From positions 34,703 to 98,702 of the forward strand of contig JAPOSW010000123.1 in assembly GCA_026709505.1 (NCBI GenBank): 64,000 bases of DNA, read 5' to 3'. The notes beneath the pieces are model-generated. The model was not told where the DNA came from. It made no database searches and saw only the letters and a program-made list of their open reading frames with translations. The translations under genes and the position numbers were made by a program. Shown here in pieces: positions 996 through 44,874 of the stretch; position 1 is the first letter of the stretch; every line of letters starts with the position of its first letter. The DNA comes from Gammaproteobacteria bacterium (lineage in GTDB: Bacteria; Pseudomonadota; Gammaproteobacteria; Arenicellales; Poriferihabitantaceae).

Positions 996-3896
996 ATGAT
1001 AGATAAGTCGAACACCAGCGAAATTGTGCTCAATACACATTTAGCAGAAATTCTCCGGACGAAACATCCGCTCTGGAGGAACTGTCTAGGCGTCGAGCAG
1101 ACCGGTGTTTTTCTCGATCATCCGCGCTTGCGGCCGGACATCCTGATTCTGCCGCCGAACGCCCAGCCTGTGATAGTGGAAACCGAGTATGCTCCGGGGG
1201 CTTCGGTTGAGAATGACGCAAAGGCTAGACTCGGTCTTGTCCCTCTCGGCTCCGAAAGCCCGATCGAGCAAACGATCGCTGTTCGAGTTCCGGATTCTTT
1301 GCGACATGGCCAGTCACAGCTTGCCGAGCGTATTTCCAATGTTGATTTCAGCTACTGCATGTTCTCTGGCGATCCATCCGCACCGCACCGCTGGCCTGAT
1401 AAAGGATGGCTCAAGGGCGATATCGACGATATTGTCCGGTGCATCGAGCATGCGATGGTTTCACAGCGCCTGATCAAAGAAAGCATGTTGATACTGGAAA
1501 ATGGCGTTTGGGTTGCGGCAAACGCGATTCAGGATGGCATGAAGCTTGGTTATACCGATACTGAACGCGAGTTAGGACGCATTCTCAATCAGCATGGAGG
1601 GGAACAGACAAACCGCATGGCAATGACCATCATTGCCAATGCCCTGACCTTCCATTCAACCATTGCCGGCTTTCATGACATTCCCTCGGTAACGCAGATC
1701 CAGAACGATACGGACGGGGCTTTTCGGATAGCAATTCTGGATGTATGGGAAAAGATACTGAATGACATCAACTACTGGCCGATCTTCGAGGTAGCATCAA
1801 CTCTTTTAGCATCGATACGAGTACAAACTGCCAATCGTGTCCTGAGAATTCTGGCTTCAGCATCCGAACGCCTTGCAGATATTGGCGTTACGACGCGACA
1901 CGACCTTTCCGGCAGGATGTTCCAGAGCCTGATTACTGACCGGAAATTCCTCGCTACGTTCTACACCCTGCCAGCGAGCGCAGCCCTTCTGGCAGAAATG
2001 GCGGTAAGCCGCCTGGATGCAGACTGGAGCAGGCTTGAAGAGTATCCCGATCTCACGATAGCCGATTTTTCTTGCGGCACGGGCACGCTCTTGTCAGCCG
2101 GCTACCATGCCGTGCTTGCCCGGTACCGCCATGCAGGCGGGGATGACAGCAAAATCCATAAGCGCATGATCGAGCAAGCCATTGTGGCTGCCGACATCAT
2201 GTCCGCGGCGGCACATCTTTGCGCCTCGCAGCTTTCCAGCGTGCATCCGACCGTCATATTCGACAATACCCGCGTCTACACGATGCCCTATGGAACGGGG
2301 AACGCCGATGAACAGTATCATGATGTTTCCATAGGCTCGCTGGACTTGATCGAGTCCGGAAAGAGCCGTTCGCTGTTTTCAACAGGCGAAGCCCGGGCCA
2401 GCGGAGCACGAGGTGACATTCATATAGCAGATGTTGAAGTCCCTCATGAGTCGGTTGACCTGGTGATCATGAACCCGCCGTTCACGCGGCCGACCAACCA
2501 TGAAGCGGCGGATGTGCCGGTTCCCTCCTTTGCGGGCTTTCGGACAACCGAAGAGGAACAGCACCTGATGTCCGGACGCCTGTCGGATATCCGCAGGGGC
2601 CTGAGGCATTCCGCAGGCCATGGCAATGCCGGACTGGCTTCCAGCTTTGTTGACCTTGCCCACGCCAAGGTCAAGCCGGGCGGCACGATCGCCCTGGTTC
2701 TGCCCATAACGGCGATACAGGGAGCTTCATGGGAACCTGCACGTCAGCTGCTTGCCGGCGAATACGAGAACATTACTGTCGTTACAATAGCCAGTGCCGG
2801 CAGCCGTGCGCGTGCCTTTTCCGCCGATACCGGGATGGCTGAGACATTGATTGTAGCTACGAAGAGGAGGGCTAGTGCCGATTCCGGTTCCGGTCAGGAC
2901 GTGCTCTTTGTCAGCCTGCATCGGCGTCCGGGCAGCATGCTGGAAGCCGCCGAAACGGCCAGGATTGTCGGGGGCTTGCCGGCATCTTTCAATGCGGGAC
3001 ATATCCGGGTCGGGGAACAGGCACTGGGCAGCTATATCCGGGCACCGCTTGGCGAAGGCGGCTGCACGAGCCTGCGCGAGTCGGCTTTGGCTGAAGTCAT
3101 GATCGCATTGCGCCAGGGCGAACTGCGGGTGCCGCAGCATCCTGCCCGTCATGACATTCCTGTCACCTCCCTCGGACAACTGGGCGCGCGTGGCCTGCTG
3201 CATAGGGACATTGGCAACAGAAAGGATGACGAGCCGCCATTTCGCGGACCTTTCCGGATCCATCCCATGGAGGGCGTTCCCAGCTATCCCGTCCTCTGGA
3301 GCCATGGTGCAGACCGCGAGCGGCACCTGCTTGTACAGCCGGACAGCATGGGGGTGGTACGTCCCGGCTGCAGGAAGCGTGCCCTGGCAGTCTGGCAAAC
3401 GGCATCAAGGCTCCACTTCAGCCTCGACTTCCGGCTGAATTCGCAAAGCCTCGCGGCTTGCCTGACGCCAGGACCCGCCCTTGGCGGTCGGGCATGGCCA
3501 AATTTTTGCCTGCATGAGGGCAAGTGGGATGAACTCATCGCGCTTTGGGCAAATTGCTCGCTCGGCCTGATGGCTTTCTGGTGGGTCGGTTCTCGGCAAC
3601 AGCAAGGGCGGGCGATTCTGACAATCAGCAAACTGCCTGAACTTCCGGTTCTTGATCCGCGCGGATTTCCGGAAGGTAAATTAACGCTGGCCAGGGAGAT
3701 TTACAGCCAGTTCGTGAGCCGGCCCCTTCTCCCCGCCAATGAGGCATATCGCGATGAGACGCGCAAGGCGCTGGATACAGCTGTCCTCATCGACTTGCTG
3801 GAACTGCCGGAAGACATGCTGGAACCCCTGGATACTCTCCGCCGGCAATGGTCCAGCGAACCGTCCGTTCACGGCGGCAAGCGCACCTCGCCTTGA
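996..3896 (+). CDS. Large gamma-class N6-adenine DNA methyltransferase fusion protein (possible type IIG/IIL-like enzyme; no partner genes)
   Basis: 966-aa ATG ORF. SAM motif I DFSCGTGTLL (~nt 2064-2090) lies upstream of catalytic motif IV NPPF in DLVIMNPPFTRP (nt 2471-2482). The ~350-aa N-terminal region has a PD-x13-ETE pattern reminiscent of PD-(D/E)XK nucleases. About 470 aa of unknown role follow motif IV. The gene is visibly GC-richer than both flanks. Confidence 0.7.
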   Translation: MIDKSNTSEIVLNTHLAEILRTKHPLWRNCLGVEQTGVFLDHPRLRPDILILPPNAQPVIVETEYAPGASVENDAKARLGLVPLGSESPIEQTIAVRVPDSLRHGQSQLAERISNVDFSYCMFSGDPSAPHRWPDKGWLKGDIDDIVRCIEHAMVSQRLIKESMLILENGVWVAANAIQDGMKLGYTDTERELGRILNQHGGEQTNRMAMTIIANALTFHSTIAGFHDIPSVTQIQNDTDGAFRIAILDVWEKILNDINYWPIFEVASTLLASIRVQTANRVLRILASASERLADIGVTTRHDLSGRMFQSLITDRKFLATFYTLPASAALLAEMAVSRLDADWSRLEEYPDLTIADFSCGTGTLLSAGYHAVLARYRHAGGDDSKIHKRMIEQAIVAADIMSAAAHLCASQLSSVHPTVIFDNTRVYTMPYGTGNADEQYHDVSIGSLDLIESGKSRSLFSTGEARASGARGDIHIADVEVPHESVDLVIMNPPFTRPTNHEAADVPVPSFAGFRTTEEEQHLMSGRLSDIRRGLRHSAGHGNAGLASSFVDLAHAKVKPGGTIALVLPITAIQGASWEPARQLLAGEYENITVVTIASAGSRARAFSADTGMAETLIVATKRRASADSGSGQDVLFVSLHRRPGSMLEAAETARIVGGLPASFNAGHIRVGEQALGSYIRAPLGEGGCTSLRESALAEVMIALRQGELRVPQHPARHDIPVTSLGQLGARGLLHRDIGNRKDDEPPFRGPFRIHPMEGVPSYPVLWSHGADRERHLLVQPDSMGVVRPGCRKRALAVWQTASRLHFSLDFRLNSQSLAACLTPGPALGGRAWPNFCLHEGKWDELIALWANCSLGLMAFWWVGSRQQQGRAILTISKLPELPVLDPRGFPEGKLTLAREIYSQFVSRPLLPANEAYRDETRKALDTAVLIDLLELPEDMLEPLDTLRRQWSSEPSVHGGKRTSP

Positions 3897-4049
3897 GCAG
3901 AACGGCAGTAAATGCTTGTGTTGTCTTAAGCCATGAAACCGGTAATCAAACTCGTGCATAACCGGAACTTTTCATTTCCCTGTATTTCAACACATTGTCG
4001 GCAACTATATGGAATGGTGACCTTCTGTAACTGATATCCATATGTCAGA

Positions 4050-14435: not shown

Positions 14436-14511
14436 TGGTGGCCAGGGGCAGAATCGAACTGCCGACACGAGGATTTTCAGTCCACTGCTCTACCGACTGA
14501 GCTACCTGGCC
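14436..14511 (-). tRNA. tRNA-Phe (GAA)
   Basis: Reverse complement is GGCCAGGTAGCTCAGTCGGTAGAGCAGTGGACTGAAAATCCTCGTGTCGGCAGTTCGATTCTGCCCCTGGCCACCA. It has a 7-bp acceptor stem, anticodon loop CTGAAAA, T-loop GTTCGATTC and encoded CCA, and closely resembles E. coli tRNA-Phe. Confidence 0.95.
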
Positions 14512-39198: not shown

Positions 39199-40422
39199 TT
39201 ATTGCGATGAAAACTGCTTCATCTTGTCGGCCTGTTCCGACTTTTGCTGTGCTGCTCTCTCCCTCTCTTGACTCAATATGAAACTGAAATAGCTCGGCAA
39301 AGCCGCTTTGTAATTCGTTGTTCCCAGCGGAGACCAAACGTAGTCCGTATCGATCATCTTGCGGAATATTCTGTCTGTTTCGATTGCGTTGCGACCTTGC
39401 TTTACAAGCTCTTCTTCTATCATTTCCTCTATGCGCAGTTTGTTGACATCGCCGATTTTCCATAGCCTGTCTGTCAAGGACACCAGCAACCTGCCGTCTC
39501 CTTTTGACCATTGACCGAATCTAGACTGGTATGCCAATTGCTTTCGTTTGCTTACCTCCGAACGAGCAAGTGCCACATCCGTTTCCTGGATAACATTCTG
39601 TCCCGCTTTCTCGATGCCAAGTTTCCAGAGCTCGCTGCCCCAGTATTGAAGATAGGTCGGATATCCCTGCGCATCCTCGATTACCTGATTCATTGCTGCC
39701 TGGGTGATTTTTATTGAAGAGTTCGACATAGGGTATTCTATTGCCGCCGCAGAGTCCCTGTCGCCAAGCAGGTCCAGGGAAATATACTCGCTTCGTTCTT
39801 CATAAGAGACCCCTGCCTCTCCAATCACGTCGAGCAACAAGGGCTTGCCGGCGAACACGCCTATGATTGGCCCACCCTTTCGACGAATCATTTCAATGTC
39901 GTCCATTACCGCCGCGAACACGTCCGGGGCTAGTCTGTGCGCCTCATCAACCATGAAAACCACTGGTCGCTTACGGCACTTTTCTGCCAGATTCCCACAA
40001 ACATTGGACCAACTCTTTTCTTTTGCGCTCCATTGCGCCGATACAACATTCAGATCGGCTATTACTCTCTCAGGCAGCAGTGAATTCCTGAAAGAAACAC
40101 CGATATCGTCAATCAGCGTCTTGCGCGCTTCCTCGATTGTTCGCATGGCATTTACCGCAGTCATGACCACCGCCGATTTGCCCTTTTTGCCCTCCTTGAG
40201 TGATTTGAGTTCTTTCCCGACCTGCTCAAGCAGACTCGTCTTTCCCATGCCCCTTGGGGCAAAGATATGCAAGTTGCTGGTTACCACCTCGCCACCAATT
40301 GTTCTTCCCAGCAATCCGTAAAGCTTGTGTTTTTCATCCTCCCGACCAGCGAGGAAGGGAGGGACCTTGCCGTGCCCTGTCGTAAACGGGTTCTTTGTTA
40401 TATTCTGTATTCCGTTTGCCAT
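39199..40422 (-). CDS. Orphan P-loop ATPase (archaeal-ATPase/AAA_16/ORC-like family)
   Basis: 407 aa. FLAGREDEKHKL, then Walker A APRGMGKTS and Walker B VVFMVDEAH. The helical C-terminal region is of unknown function. Confidence 0.7.
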   Translation of the reverse strand: MANGIQNITKNPFTTGHGKVPPFLAGREDEKHKLYGLLGRTIGGEVVTSNLHIFAPRGMGKTSLLEQVGKELKSLKEGKKGKSAVVMTAVNAMRTIEEARKTLIDDIGVSFRNSLLPERVIADLNVVSAQWSAKEKSWSNVCGNLAEKCRKRPVVFMVDEAHRLAPDVFAAVMDDIEMIRRKGGPIIGVFAGKPLLLDVIGEAGVSYEERSEYISLDLLGDRDSAAAIEYPMSNSSIKITQAAMNQVIEDAQGYPTYLQYWGSELWKLGIEKAGQNVIQETDVALARSEVSKRKQLAYQSRFGQWSKGDGRLLVSLTDRLWKIGDVNKLRIEEMIEEELVKQGRNAIETDRIFRKMIDTDYVWSPLGTTNYKAALPSYFSFILSQERERAAQQKSEQADKMKQFSSQ

Positions 40423-40676
40423 CGTTTGCCCTTAATGAGAAATTGCCGGTTTTCAGTCGCTCAAGTAATTTTGCAATTGGATGCAGGTTCAACAAACATG
40501 CAGGAGATGGGAATCAAAACGGAATTCATCAAGAGTTGCCAACCTCACAGTGGGTAGGCAACATCATCAAAGAAAGTTGCGAAGTTGTCAAGATGTCTGA
40601 TTTTATAGCGTGGAACGGCTTTAGGCCATCTCTTTCACTTCTATCCATATCGATTCTGATAGAATACTGCAAGTGC

Positions 40677-40968
40677 GTCCCCGTAGTTCAGCAGGATAGA
40701 ACGGTCGCCTCCTGAATATTGGGCATCGGGGTTGGAAACTCCCTGAATGAATCCACTCAAATTAGGGGAAACCTTAGCGGTTCAAGCCGATGGCAATCCC
40801 TAGCCAAGCCGATGACGGAAGGTATAGAGACTAAACGGGTGGGGCCTACGGGCAGTTGTGCCCATGGTCAAGAGATAGTCCAGACTCCAAACAGTCATGA
40901 ACTGGCAGTGAAAACTGTGGCGGGTATGAAGCGACAGGTCAGAGGTTCGAATCCTCTCGGGGACGCCA
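40677..40968 (+). tRNA. tRNA-Arg (CCU) gene interrupted by a group I intron in the anticodon loop
   Basis: Exon 1 is GTCCCCG-TA-GTTC-AGCAGGATA-GAAC-G-GTCGC-CTCCT (40677-40713). Exon 2 is AA-GCGAC-AGGTC-AGAGG-TTCGAAT-CCTCT-CGGGGAC-G-CCA (40929-40968). Joined, they give a canonical 77-nt cloverleaf with anticodon loop CUCCUAA. Confidence 0.85.
40714..40928 (+). ncRNA. Group I intron (IC3-like, tRNA-anticodon-loop type), 215 nt
   Basis: Follows a U (possible U-G wobble in P1: CCU with downstream GGG) and ends in G (omega-G, ...GGGTATG). Core strings CTCAAATTAGGGGAAACCTTAGCG, GATGGCAATCCCTAGCCAAGC and GGTATAGAGACTAAACGG parallel the conserved core of the Azoarcus tRNA-Ile IC3 intron as I recall it. 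Confidence 0.8.
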
Positions 40969-40997
40969 TATTGAACTCTCGCATACCGGTTCTGTCC

Positions 40998-41777
40998 GTG
41001 AATTCTGATCCTCCCGCTTTCATTGACCTTCTTGATCTTACGGGTCGAGTGGTTCTGGTCACCGGCGCAACAGGCGGCTTGGGTTCTCATTTTGCACATG
41101 TACTTGATAAAGCAGGTGCGACGGTTGCAATTGCAGGTCGAAATCGTAGGAAACTCGATCATGCTACTTCTGGCTTGTCGAATAGGACGCTGTCAGTCGA
41201 GCTTGATGTCCAAAGCAACCCGTCCATTTCTGATGCCATTGAATCCGTGGTCAACACTTTGGGACCGATTGATATTCTGGTCAATAATGCAGGAATTACG
41301 CATTCAGCCCGTTTCATTGGAATCGAGAAACAAGCCTGGTCTGAAATTATGGAAACCAACTTGCATGGAATGTTTCGGCTTTCTCAGTTGGTTTCTCGGT
41401 ACATGCTGGAAAATCAGAGATCAGGATGTATCTTGAATATTGCCTCTATCCTTGGAATGCAGCCGGGTTTTGGGCAGACAGCCTATTCGGTCTCAAAAGC
41501 AGGAGTTATTCAACTTACCAGGAGTATGGCACTGGAACTTGGCCCTAAAGGGATTCGTGTAAATGCGCTCTGCCCTGGATACTTCAAGACAGACATGAAT
41601 CGCGAGTATCTGGATTCTGATGCCGGAATTGCATACATTGAAAAAACCCCTGCTGGCCGGACCGGACAGATGCATGAACTGGATATTCCGTTATTAATGC
41701 TGGTCAGCGATGCCGGTAATTTTATCAATGGCGCCGTGATACCCGTTGATGGCGGGCACTTGGTTCAATCCCTGTGA
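40998..41777 (+). CDS. Short-chain dehydrogenase/reductase
   Basis: VTGATGGLG, NNAG and YSVSKAG motifs. The track ORF start (40719) runs through the tRNA and intron and is spurious. GTG 40998 is the first plausible start after the tRNA, but the start remains uncertain. Confidence 0.75.
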   Translation: MNSDPPAFIDLLDLTGRVVLVTGATGGLGSHFAHVLDKAGATVAIAGRNRRKLDHATSGLSNRTLSVELDVQSNPSISDAIESVVNTLGPIDILVNNAGITHSARFIGIEKQAWSEIMETNLHGMFRLSQLVSRYMLENQRSGCILNIASILGMQPGFGQTAYSVSKAGVIQLTRSMALELGPKGIRVNALCPGYFKTDMNREYLDSDAGIAYIEKTPAGRTGQMHELDIPLLMLVSDAGNFINGAVIPVDGGHLVQSL

Positions 41778-41880
41778 CTTCGTGAATCTTCACAGGAGGC
41801 AGGTCATCCAATCTGGTTTTATCGGGATTGTACCCGCCGGGTGCTTGCATCCCTTGATACAGAAACTTCGAACGCCAAGA

Positions 41881-42867
41881 TCAGACTTGCAGTACTACTT
41901 TGGGAGCAGCACATTGTCCTTCGAAAATTTGCTTGAATGCTTCTGCTCCAGTATCTAACGGTCTTGGTGAAATCCAGTCAAGGGATCCCAAAGCCCCACT
42001 ATGCAGCTTTTCGAGAGTCACCCGAAGATCGACGGGGGAATACGTATAACAACCGATGAAGGTGATTTCCTGGAGTGTCATGCGGCGAGTATCCAGCTGA
42101 CCTTCATTGTCCATGAGACCAATATGTACCACAATGCCACCGGACCGAACACAATCCACAGCCGTACTGCGGGTTCTGGCATTGCCTACCGCATCAAACA
42201 CCAAGTCATAGGCCTCTCTATCTGGTGGGCTGTCAATCGGATCAAACACTGAGCAATTTGTATGTTCCATCACAGTTTGGCGTCGAAGCAGGTTGGTTTC
42301 TGAAATTTCAGTTTGAACTCCCTTGTCCTTGAGCGCAAGCGCAGTCAATAACCCGACAGAGCCAGCACCAATAACAAGGGACTTGGTTTCGCTGATTGGT
42401 CGTGAAACCGACCGTTCAGCAAGATTAACAGCATGTATCGCAGTAGCTCCGGGTTCTGTTAGCGCAGCCTTGTCAGGATCCATTCCTTCTGGAACTTCAA
42501 TCAGGTTTCGTTCGGGAATTGCTATCATTTCTGCAAATGCACCCGGTCGATACATGCCTATCAGATCCCGCTCGGCGCAGAGATTTTGTCTTCCTGACAG
42601 GCAATAGTCGCACTGCATGCAAGTAATCAGGGGATTCAGTACCACACGACTGCCGGGGCTGGACCCTTCCATAACCGTACCCACAGCTTCGTGTCCCAGA
42701 ATGAGGGGCGGGACCCGACGTTCATCATGCCCAAGATAGGCATGCATGTCCGAACCACAAATTCCGACACTCTGAACTTTAACCAACGAATCACCCTGTC
42801 CCACTTCAGGATCCGGTTCATCGCGGTAAGTCATCTCTTGTTCTGCAGTAAAGACCAGTGCTTTCAT
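41881..42867 (-). CDS. Zinc-dependent alcohol/polyol dehydrogenase (MDR family)
   Basis: MKALVF..., zinc motif GICGSDMH and Rossmann GAGSVGL. Start moved to ATG 42867, which has GGAG upstream. Confidence 0.85.
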   Translation of the reverse strand: MKALVFTAEQEMTYRDEPDPEVGQGDSLVKVQSVGICGSDMHAYLGHDERRVPPLILGHEAVGTVMEGSSPGSRVVLNPLITCMQCDYCLSGRQNLCAERDLIGMYRPGAFAEMIAIPERNLIEVPEGMDPDKAALTEPGATAIHAVNLAERSVSRPISETKSLVIGAGSVGLLTALALKDKGVQTEISETNLLRRQTVMEHTNCSVFDPIDSPPDREAYDLVFDAVGNARTRSTAVDCVRSGGIVVHIGLMDNEGQLDTRRMTLQEITFIGCYTYSPVDLRVTLEKLHSGALGSLDWISPRPLDTGAEAFKQIFEGQCAAPKVVLQV

Positions 42868-43127
42868 ATCCACTCCATTGTTTGCGCGAATAAATTTGTT
42901 CCAGATCCATGCCAGCATATCTGTCCGTAGGATGCAAGAGAAATTTGCCAAATGCTGTATGGATGGCGTTGAATAGAATAATGCATTGTATGCCTACGAT
43001 GTATTCAAGGAATGAAGTTATATGATTATTATTAGAAAAAATAGTTAAATGATTGTTTATATGGTGAGTATATCTCCGAAATAGGCCTCGTTGCTGGCTC
43101 TTCATTCAAGAATCCTTCATCCTGCCC

Positions 43128-44874
43128 TTAAATCACCGCATTTTCGATGAATGGCAATCCTTTTAAAATGCGTTCGTAGTCCAGTTCCAACAGATCCAAT
43201 GACCGATACTTTCCATAAGTAATTAATTCGCAAATTCCCCTACCTACGACGGCTGAAGTCCATGACCGGAAAACCATTGGCAAAATAAAAATGACTGATC
43301 TGGCCATGCAGGCCAACTATGGCATTTTGATCCGATGTATTGTAATCATAGTGCTCTGCCCAGCAGCTGAGCATCTTGTTTGCTTCAAAATTTTTGGATC
43401 GGTCAGCAAGATTAATCCAGATATCTTCAAACTGATCGTAGACTGGACCAAGATCATCGGGGTCCGTTTCTTTATCTGGATCCGGTGATATGTCAGCAAG
43501 AAATGCATCTCCTTCCGGACGACAAAACACCCGGGATGAGTCAATCATCAGTGGCAATTTCCCATTGCCAATGGCGGCATTGCCCTGCGGAGAGTTGGAG
43601 GACTTGAATACAAAGGTCGTTCGTTTGCGCGGTTCAACAGGAATCTTCAGTCCAGTCATGGCAGCAATCTGATCACCTCTTGTGCCTGCCCCATTCACTA
43701 TGCTGTCGCAGTATATTCTTGTGCTATCCGTCAGCGTTATGGAATTCACCCTTTCGCTAGAATGACTGATGGAGACCACTTCTCCAACGATTAATTCGGC
43801 TTCTTGCTCAATAGCCTTTTGTCCGAAGCTTTCCATCATTGCAGTATTGGAAAACCAGCCTTCAATTCATCCTGTTCAAGCAACACAGCAGGCCTGAACC
43901 TGATGATTGGCCATTAGTACCTTTTCCTGACTCTCGGTTGAGGCCAGAAACAGGCAAACGTTTTCCTGAAAAGACAAATCCGGTTTATGCCGACCGGTTT
44001 CCATGTTGTCGGCAAACCCGCGAATAAACTCCGTACCAAGTTGACTCGTTCGCAAATTGACCGGTTTCGAAAACTGGTGATGTATTGAATTTGAACTAAG
44101 CGATGTAGCGGCTTTTGAGTAGGTGGCATCCATTTCGATCATTGTGGCCGATCCTCCCTCTGAAATCGCGGTTTGATGTTAAGAAATATGCAACGGAGCT
44201 TACGATTGACCTTCATCGTTTGGATTCCCAGTTCGCAAAACCACCCGCCTAGAATCTTTACTGCAATGAAATCACGGTCGGCAGGCAGTGCTACTTGCTC
44301 AACCTGCTGTCGGAAGGATTCCGGTCTATGTTATGGTTTAAATCCTCTCATATGGACACTGTTGACTCGGAGGATTGCCTGGATGAATGCTTGCCGTGTC
44401 GTGATATTCGCCGTTCAGCCCGGTTTCCCGGTCCGGCAATCCGGGCTTTCGCCCGCCATGCCCCTGCGGGCATGAGCGGGAATTGCCGGGCTTGTGCCGA
44501 AAGCCCGGAAAAAGTGCCGGAATGGTGACATTTTGTCCCCTCACTGGTATTTGCTGTGGGAAAAATGCCCAGTAACCATCATAGCGAGGCCGAAAACCTC
44601 CCGGAGTCAACAGTGTCCATATGAAAGGTTTACATCCAATGTGACCAGCCTAGAAGTCATCAACTACTTTAAGCTGATTGTCTGAAATGCCAAAGTAATG
44701 GTGGGCATATTGAGCACAGTCATCGCATGGCAAGCCAGCGGCGTACCAGGTTGAGCCAGATGTCAGCTTGCTCCTCTTCGGCATGATCACATCCTAGCAG
44801 CCATGGCTTGTCAATCCATGCACAATTGATTTGCCAATACATCCGCCACCGACAACATCTATTTCATTTATCAT
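43128..44874 (-). pseudogene. FAD-dependent oxidoreductase (DAO/SoxB-like) pseudogene, multiply frameshifted and insertion-disrupted
   Basis: Homologous pieces lie in different frames. These are the N-terminal dinucleotide fold MINEIDVVGGGCIGKS...(TAG stop)...GSTWYAAG at 44700-44874, SIHHQFSKPVN...DLSFQENVCLFLAST in ORF 43876..44142, the 199-aa ORF 43240..43839, and the C-terminal ...VVGRGICELITYGKYRSLDL in ORF 43128..43316. A 281-bp IR element sits at 44346-44626. Confidence 0.7.
44346..44626. mobile_element. MITE-like non-autonomous element with ~28-bp terminal inverted repeats
   Basis: IR-L is TCTCATATGGACACTGTTGACTCGGAGG (44346-44373). IR-R is CCTCCCGGAGTCAACAGTGTCCATATGAAA (44597-44626). 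The 21-nt core is identical. The element is flanked by direct repeat GGTTTAAATCC (44335-44345) / GGTTTACATCC (44627-44637). The interior is GC-rich with nested hairpins and no credible ORF. Confidence 0.6.

Follow-up and report, generated by a model that had tools for sequence, protein, structure and literature searches.

A split tRNA-Arg(CCU) gene, very probably functional, with a 215-nucleotide Arg.5Ug group I intron in a sponge-associated gammaproteobacterium

Introduction

Can a bacterial tRNA gene that is cut in two within its anticodon loop still supply a working tRNA, and what would remove the insert? The question is raised by a 64,000-nucleotide (nt) stretch of contig JAPOSW010000123.1, here called the window, in which a tRNA-Arg(CCU) gene at positions 40677-40968 of the plus strand is split between U36 and A37, immediately 3' of the anticodon. 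The host is a sponge-associated gammaproteobacterium of the order Arenicellales, near 'Ca. Poriferihabitans'. In this study we describe the gene, its insert and its relatives, and conclude that it is very probably a functional tRNA-Arg(CCU) gene holding a 215-nt IC3-type group I intron of the Arg.5Ug class, whose removal would proceed by autocatalytic splicing in two transesterifications.

A tRNA-Arg(CCU) intron was reportedly described in Agrobacterium tumefaciens by Reinhold-Hurek and Shub in 1992, and others in further alpha-proteobacteria are said to have been described by Paquin and colleagues in 1999. The first-pass annotation of the window, made from the sequence alone, had named Agrobacterium and a few other bacteria as carriers of introns at this site, and rightly so, but in calling such introns rare it overstated the case, Arg.5Ug being one of the four classical tRNA-intron settings, with a combined total of 3453 introns across 80,413 genomes (Williams 2020, doi 10.1101/2020.01.27.920355).

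Results

Anatomy of the interrupted gene

The gene is composed of two exons and one intron:

40677-40713 (+): tRNA exon 1, GUCCCCGUAGUUCAGCAGGAUAGAACGGUCGCCUCCU, from intron-aware ARAGORN; acceptor 5' strand, D arm, anticodon stem 5' strand and loop bases C32 U33 C34 C35 U36
40714-40928 (+): group I intron, IC3-type Arg.5Ug, 215 nt, following U36 and ending in G
40929-40968 (+): tRNA exon 2; A37 A38, anticodon stem 3' strand, variable loop, T arm, acceptor 3' strand, discriminator G73 and encoded CCA

Run with introns allowed, ARAGORN reports a tRNA-Arg(cct) with a 215-nt intron after tRNA position 37, which corresponds exactly to 40714-40928. In the cloverleaf returned by the same program, the spliced 77-mer has a 7-bp acceptor and Watson-Crick pairs in all stems, with the D stem GUUC/GAAC, the anticodon stem GUCGC/GCGAC closing the loop CUCCUAA, the T arm AGAGG-UUCGAAU-CCUCU, the discriminator G and the encoded CCA. 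The first-pass annotation had described just such a gene, split by a 215-nt insert, with the loop CUCCUAA and a perfect cloverleaf; every element lies where it had been placed, and the intron-aware search that it had suggested reproduces its coordinates, the exon halves folding as tRNA. Reading of the spliced sequence finds A20, C35 and G73 in place. A20 and C35 are the main identity elements for arginyl-tRNA synthetase in E. coli.

For comparison we used the four closest genomes whose locus holds the tRNA gene, designated L041, L043, L045 and L046. Exon 1 is identical in the first three, and the D-stem pair U11-A24 (40687-40688 and 40700-40701) is common to the window and all four, while C11-G24 occupies this position in all other tRNA-Arg(CCU) genes examined, interrupted or not. 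U11-A24 is a compensatory change specific to this clade, and the D arm characteristic of the clade, GUAGUUCAGCAGGAUAGAAC, could provide a specific handle for reverse-transcription PCR, the predicted exon-exon joint (...GGUCGCCUCCU joined to AAGCGACAGG) lying downstream of it.

One further element precedes the gene:

40657-40665 (+): putative extended -10 element, TGATAGAAT (TGnTAnAAT), 12 nt 5' of the tRNA, recognized by reading the sequence

A CTGrTAnAAT motif stands at equal distance from the tRNA in the four relatives, surrounded by intergenic DNA that is 36-64% identical. A strict sigma-70 scan did not call the -10 element, and a good -35 element is absent. Judged by its sequence, the motif at 40657-40665 probably functions as a promoter element.

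Fold of the intron

Intron positions are numbered as the coordinate minus 40713. The structure was derived by hand and tested on a MAFFT alignment of 15 introns; it comprises the following parts:

40711-40723 (+): P1; anticodon C34 C35 U36 (40711-40713) with the guide G10 G9 G8 (40721-40723)
40727-40745 (+), intron 14-32: P2 hairpin, CGGGGUUG / CUCCCUG, with the L2 loop GAAA at 40735-40738 (22-25)
40753-40758 (+), intron 40-45: P3 5' strand, CCACUC, partner of 40837-40842
40763-40802 (+): P4-P5-P5a domain; P4 UAGGGG at 40763-40768 (50-55) with UCCCUA at 40797-40802 (84-89), J4/5 AAA, P5/P5a at 40772-40793 (59-80) with the receptor-like CCUUAG...AUGG
40803-40823 (+), intron 90-110: P6/P6a; P6 GCC/GGU, P6a hairpin CCG-AUGA-CGG
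40827-40833 (+), intron 114 and 116-120: P7 5' strand, G and GACUA with A115 bulged between them, pairing with 40876-40881 and forming a pseudoknot with P3
40837-40842 (+), intron 124-129: P3 3' strand, GGGUGG
40843-40869 (+), intron 130-156: P8, GGCC/GGUC plus the inner stem GGGC/GCCC; CCUACG...CAUGG, a variant of the 11-nt tetraloop-receptor motif
40876-40881 (+), intron 163-168: P7 3' strand, UAGUCC, with J8/7 AAGAGA at 40870-40875 just before it
40884-40925 (+): P9 domain; P9 ACUCC/GCGGGU (171-175 with 207-212), P9a hairpin 40892-40904 (179-191), P9b hairpin 40905-40918 (192-205) with GAAA at 40910-40913 (197-200)
40928 (+), G215: omega-G, the last intron base, 5' of the 3' splice site

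From P2 to P9b, including the P7 pseudoknot, 94.7% of the proposed pairs are formed across the 15 introns; in controls with the 3' partners shifted by 1-3 columns, the figure is 27-43%. Both sides have changed in 26 of the 43 pairs, and none of 500 column shuffles reached any of five measures. In P3, P4, P6, P7 and P8 pairing is complete (100%), although 11 of the 25 core pairs change on both sides, among them four of the six in P3, three in P4 and two in P8; the P6 pair 92-108 turns from C-G to G-C in five sequences, and in P7, the guanosine-binding helix of group I introns, five of the six pairs are invariant and the sixth is A-U, U-A or G-C. Outside this core, P9 (96.5% paired) and P9b (94.7%) show three and four pairs changed on both sides, and all seven pairs of P2 do so, with 74% of its cells paired in the MAFFT alignment. 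The GAAA loops of L2 and P9b are near-invariant; by analogy with the Azoarcus structure, the two loops may dock at the receptor positions of P5 and P8, with the P5 motif as the candidate receptor of L9.

At the 5' splice site, U-1 forms a wobble pair with G8 and P1 is extended by G1·U7 and A2-U6, while U6 and U7 can alternatively pair with A37 and A38 of exon 2 to give P10. In all 13 interrupted genes a GGG guide lies 8-18 nt into the intron, with a CCU/GGG P1 and a P10 of 1-3 bp, and in a strain variant the change G1>A converts the G·U of the P1 extension into A-U. The features on which the insert had originally been called an IC3-like group I intron, namely an Azoarcus-like core, U at -1 and G at the end, all hold.

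Two other kinds of insert were considered and rejected. A protein-spliced intron of the archaeal bulge-helix-bulge type would lie at another position (37/38, not 36/37) and would not have the ribozyme core seen here; a genomic island in the tRNA gene is at odds with an insert of 215 nt that has no open reading frame (ORF) of its own and leaves both tRNA halves intact.

Detection and class assignment

Default ARAGORN, applied to the window, finds a tRNA-Phe (14436-14511) and misses the interrupted gene, and Rfam at gathering thresholds finds the same tRNA-Phe alone and misses the intron; because the gene escapes both, the genome seems to lack tRNA-Arg(CCU). A permissive Rfam scan matches Intron_gpI (RF00028) over its full length (model 1-253, 46.3 bits, local E 1.6e-10), short of the gathering score of 50 bits. 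This cutoff is reached by 7 of the 15 introns of the subgroup but by no intron of the clade to which the window belongs; such introns are thus systematically under-annotated. The Rfam model used by Williams had 12 seeds, none of them bacterial, hence a working level of about 18-20 bits in that survey (doi 10.1101/2020.01.27.920355). Since bacterial sequences were absent from the seeds, we treat the shortfall as a sensitivity limit of the model and not as evidence against membership.

We therefore rely on a family model, R1, a covariance model of 13 other tRNA introns (ten homologous introns from public genomes and metagenomes, two published Arg.5Ug introns and Azoarcus Ile2.5Ug) from which the window and its closest relative, L028, were excluded. 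R1 matches 40709-40928 with 176.5 bits (E 2.4e-54) over its full length, 1-237, and the alignment ends on omega-G, which is G in 13 of 13 interrupted genes. The match is the sole significant one in the 64 kb, the next best having E 5.3, and is far beyond chance. The covariance-model check that the first-pass annotation had proposed is thus divided in its outcome, the score lying below the Rfam cutoff and the leave-out family model recognizing the intron from end to end.

The setting CUCCU/g…g/AA is that of the 'Arg.5Ug' class of Williams, defined by insertion after the fifth anticodon-loop base, U-1 and omega-G. Throughout the core the intron aligns with Rur1.Arg.5Ug, Bbo3.Arg.5Ug and Aol6.Ile2.5Ug (56-64% identity, with invariant core blocks); its identity is 78% to L028 and 64-71% to ten other introns of the gamma type. 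The hosts of these ten belong to Thiotrichales, Chromatiales, Arenicellales, Pseudomonadales and Thiohalomonadales, with one Desulfuromonadaceae metagenome-assembled genome (MAG), MAGs labelled Gammaproteobacteria or Pseudomonadota and one unassigned metagenome contig. These alignments place the intron in a mostly gammaproteobacterial subgroup of the known Arg.5Ug class. We found no specific description of this subgroup in the literature, where the all-bacteria survey of Williams may well have counted such cases.

Conservation of the locus

The neighbouring GshA is 81-88% identical to that of sponge MAGs assigned to Arenicellales, 'Candidatus Poriferihabitans sp.' or Gammaproteobacteria bacterium. 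The interrupted gene was assembled independently in four sponge metagenome runs, strain variants included, and in four other genomes, which rules out an assembly chimera or artefact. In L041, L043, L045 and L046, R1 and ARAGORN place it at the same site, with introns of 214, 215, 216 and 218 nt in these close relatives, and the spliced tRNA is identical to that of the window in three of the four and one base off in L046. The shared gene order is gshA, a Cys/Met pyridoxal-phosphate (PLP) enzyme, a membrane protein, the tRNA, a short-chain dehydrogenase/reductase (SDR) and ADH, except that the membrane-protein gene is unmatched in L046 and the SDR gene in L045.

In 14 more distant genomes (Poriferihabitaceae, Spongiihabitans and other gammaproteobacteria), an uninterrupted 77-nt tRNA-Arg(CCU) lies downstream of gshA, and three of them, all 'Ca. 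Spongiihabitans', have the same PLP-enzyme gene immediately before it. The interrupted and uninterrupted genes are alleles of one locus, and they confirm the insertion point. This synteny holds within the Arenicellales clade only; the window and 13 distant homologous loci have no gene context in common.

The same four genomes make it possible to ask how the intron has been maintained. Compared with the window, the fourfold-degenerate sites of the adjacent gene are 36-64% identical and so are the 120 nt upstream of the tRNA, whereas the intron is 83-93.5% and the exons are 99-100% identical. Among the five genomes, 21 of 120 paired positions vary against 30 of 98 unpaired ones, and 12 of the 15 varying pairs stay paired throughout, with exchanges of G-C to A-U, U-A to A-U and A-U to C-G. 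The intron is far more identical than synonymous sites, and its RNA is thus subject to purifying selection. Such a pattern would be expected of a working ribozyme in a tRNA gene that the cell needs, and it argues against a decaying pseudogene.

Two observations concern the surroundings of the tRNA. A 407-aa AAA_16/AAA_22 ATPase gene, 39199-40422 (-), stands between the membrane-protein gene and the tRNA in the window only, with no tblastn match in the syntenic loci of the four relatives; the tRNA is nearer gshA in three of these four loci, and the ATPase gene may be an insertion beside the tRNA. In Ca. Poriferihabitans sp. OZ244855.1 (9450-13605; GshA 81% identical), the gshA, PLP-enzyme and membrane-protein genes are present, and the following 4 kb hold no tRNA-Arg(CCU), SDR match or intron match, which could reflect a rearrangement or an insertion at the site.

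Transcripts, splicing and gene copy number

In five sponge metatranscriptome runs, contigs of close variants cross the 5' and/or the 3' splice site unspliced, and in the four runs that were compared with L041 the flanking DNA has no coverage. The interrupted gene is probably transcribed, as these close variants indicate.

Several results weigh against a functional, efficiently spliced gene. The RNA contigs are all unspliced, with DNA carry-over a possible source, and the exon-exon joint is absent from the contigs of 8 DNA or undetermined and 5 RNA runs, although contigs cannot reveal a 77-nt mature tRNA. Within the intron, P2 is disturbed by a U19·U27 mismatch and by the bulging of U20, and the receptor motifs of P5 and P8 are not the canonical 11-nt one but variants of it. 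The minimum-free-energy fold of the precursor is no better than that of shuffles (z -0.73), as expected for a pseudoknotted ribozyme. To these must be added the RF00028 score below the gathering cutoff and the possibility of a second tRNA-Arg(CCU) gene in the genome.

The unspliced contigs, the receptor variants and the P2 mismatch could mean that the intron, while a genuine group I intron, is inefficient alone, either needing a protein cofactor or RNA chaperone or reacting so slowly that unspliced RNA builds up; the usual assumption for group I introns is that protein cofactors assist them in the cell (PMC7717549). Close family members nevertheless self-splice in vitro, as is the case of BbgpI of Bartonella bacilliformis (PMC7717549) and, according to literature cited there, of the Agrobacterium intron. 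Moreover, the core helices and junctions are all intact and conserved, and mature tRNA is under-sampled by standard RNA-seq, so that the presence of precursor says little on efficiency. We consider inefficiency of this kind unlikely, and a self-sufficient ribozyme the better account.

A more radical possibility is that the intron is catalytically dead and the tRNA a pseudogene, with AGG read by another tRNA. It would agree with the missing spliced product, with the potential presence of another tRNA-Arg(CCU) or a tRNA-Arg(UCU) gene elsewhere in the genome, and with the uninterrupted tRNA-Arg(CCU) genes that occur in the same metagenomes. These last, however, are flanked by other sequence on their long contigs, and their depth relative to the interrupted gene varies across runs from a ratio of 0.8 to one of 4.4; for these reasons they most likely come from another community member. 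No uninterrupted loop with the clade-specific D arm was found in DNA. A dead intron is also hard to reconcile with its high identity at a locus where synonymous sites are near saturation, with substitutions that keep pairing, with the compensatory D-stem change and with the conserved -10 element, and we hold this alternative to be very improbable beside a functional gene.

Three observations touch on the uninterrupted genes. In runs X1, X2, X4, X6, X13, X17 and X20, an uninterrupted tRNA-Arg(CCU) has the same anticodon arm and another 5' half (…TAGCTCAGCAGGACAGAGCGGTCGCCTCCT|AAGCGAC…). The anticodon arm of the spliced junction is common to many phyla; among the matches listed in an exact scan for that junction none is the uninterrupted allele of the sponge metagenomes, and the scan is uninformative on a second copy. 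In two Terriglobia MAGs (L125, 2853-2985, and L148, 2775-2933), two uninterrupted anticodon-arm pattern matches share one orientation and are separated by about 110-135 bp; as pattern matches, they suggest tandem gene copies.

In the long ORFs of the window, 8.6 of every 1000 codons and 14.7% of Arg codons are AGG. If the interrupted gene is the sole tRNA-Arg(CCU) gene, AGG decoding by its cognate tRNA depends on splicing; in E. coli, tRNA-Arg(UCU) also reads AGG, less efficiently.

An open reading frame through the intron

The downstream SDR gene has been called with an extension that overlaps the tRNA:

40998-41777 (+): SDR gene, 259 aa, GTG start, 29 nt after the tRNA
40719-40997 (+): spurious SDR extension of 93 codons, through the intron and exon 2

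On a 161,746-bp sponge metagenome scaffold that matches the window, the public gene call is the 352-aa ORF 40719-41777, which runs through the intron. The first-pass annotation had warned of exactly this ORF and of its mis-annotation of the SDR gene, and the public call is identical. The unbroken frame and its public call might be taken to mean that the region encodes an SDR with a real N-terminal extension and that the RNA signals are coincidental. Yet no Pfam family matches residues 1-94, and adh_short covers residues 110-297, starting from profile position 1. In relatives, whose introns measure 214-218 nt, length differences that are not multiples of three break the extended frame; GTG 40998 aligns with ATG in L041, L043 and L046, and in L046 an in-frame stop stands just upstream of this conserved start. 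With an RNA-model E value of 2e-54 against it, we assign the coding explanation a practically negligible probability. The 352-aa ORF is an over-call, and GTG 40998 is the true start.

Other introns and scans

A genome scan with the alpha-type pattern CCTCCT…CTCAAAKTCGGGGAAAGC returned 0 loci, and one with CTCCT… returned 1, in a Verrucomicrobia MAG, a chance match with neither tRNA nor model match. Lineage variation at tRNA positions 31 and 32 would be the likely cause of the failure of the alpha-type scan; for alpha-type introns, a published alignment was used in place of genome scans. A metagenome scan with the gamma-type pattern gave 2 real loci (L026 and L028) out of 17.

R1 also recognizes introns in other tRNA genes. 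The conjugative plasmid CP094621.1 of Bradyrhizobium sp. ISRA435 holds an unannotated tRNA-Leu(UAA) with a 204-nt group I intron (L121, 1399-1689; R1 164.8 bits), found as well in ISRA436, ISRA437 and ISRA443; the locus is blank in the PLSDB gene table, which is incomplete and lists no RNA genes. In Gordonia phage Daredevil, NC_048021.1 (L122, 1344-1655; reverse complement of 40404-43474), an unannotated tRNA-Lys(UUU) with a 238-nt group I intron (131.1 bits) lies between the integrase gp54 and gp53, with the HNH endonuclease gp51 nearby. A homologous intron in a Thiotrichales MAG (L014, 4285-4706 (-)) measures 419 nt and so exceeds the others by about 200 nt; its first ~110 nt are gamma-type-like and the extra sequence lies further 3'.

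Elsewhere in the window, positions 2001-4000 have a G+C content of 59.5%, against 43-53% in the other 2-kb bins, and no Rfam family there.

Discussion

Our results allow us to propose how the interrupted gene would give rise to a tRNA. The gene would be transcribed, probably from the extended -10 element at 40657-40665, and the intron would fold into a P1-P9 ribozyme, P1 arising from the anticodon CCU and the GGG guide of the intron, with the U·G wobble marking the splice site. The first attack, after U36, would come from an exogenous guanosine bound to P7; omega-G (40928) would next take the same P7 site, and the free 3'-OH of U36 would attack after omega-G, giving the 77-nt tRNA with the loop CUCCUAA and releasing the intron.

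A bolder extension is that in this sponge-symbiont clade the interrupted gene is the sole one for tRNA-Arg(CCU) and that splicing, being dependent on GTP and Mg2+, gates the supply of the AGG decoder, which would explain the long retention of the ribozyme beyond the mere difficulty of losing it. If this were true, translation of AGG-rich genes would be coupled to the energy state of the cell; we regard it as a long shot. In our view, the intron is an ordinary though well-preserved classical bacterial tRNA intron, and its value is mostly practical and evolutionary. The annotation blind spot that conceals it also affects the interrupted tRNA genes of the Bradyrhizobium plasmids and the Gordonia phage. 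Interrupted and uninterrupted alleles, together with strong purifying selection, make up a clean natural data set on the long-term retention of group I introns, and the Arg.5Ug class is placed in several gammaproteobacterial orders, beyond the alphaproteobacteria of its first description.

The closest known systems are the alphaproteobacterial Arg.5Ug introns, which have the same host gene, U36/A37 insertion, U-1·G wobble, GGG guide and omega-G. Their P1-P9 fold is likewise the same, GAAA loops cap P2 and P9, and they lack an ORF and have a comparable length of about 215-240 nt. The window intron differs from them in its gammaproteobacterial host, in its identity of 61-64% to the two published representatives, and in P5, where the alpha type has GAAAGC and the window intron GAAACC. 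In Bartonella the host tRNA gene is unannotated too; self-splicing, dependent on guanosine and Mg2+, has been shown for that member and is predicted for the present one.

The structurally solved IC3 intron in the tRNA-Ile(CAU) of Azoarcus sp. BH72 / A. olearius (Ile2.5Ug) is inserted at the same position, after nt 36, and shares the 3-bp exon part of P1. J3/4-P4-J4/5, P6 (GCCAAGC), J6/7-P7 (GUAGAGACUA…) and J8/7-P7' (AAG..AUAGUCC) are near-identical, and in both introns P2 and P9 are capped by GAAA tetraloops, while P8 and P5 contain receptor-type motifs. They differ in the tRNA and the guide (CAU/GUG, against CCU/GGG here), with 56% identity overall, in an extra P9a hairpin of the window intron, and in the receptors, which in Azoarcus are the canonical CCUAAG…UAUGG in both P5 and P8 and in the window are the variants CCUUAG…AUGG (P5) and CCUACG…CAUGG (P8); a homologue of the window intron, L001, has the canonical motif at the P5 position. 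The tRNA-Leu(UAA) introns of cyanobacteria and plastids (Leu.3Ug) are likewise IC3 introns of the anticodon loop with the same core, but their insertion site lies between anticodon positions 34 and 35 in another tRNA, and their guide sequence differs; the intron that R1 recognizes on the Bradyrhizobium plasmids with 164.8 bits is of this Leu.3Ug type.

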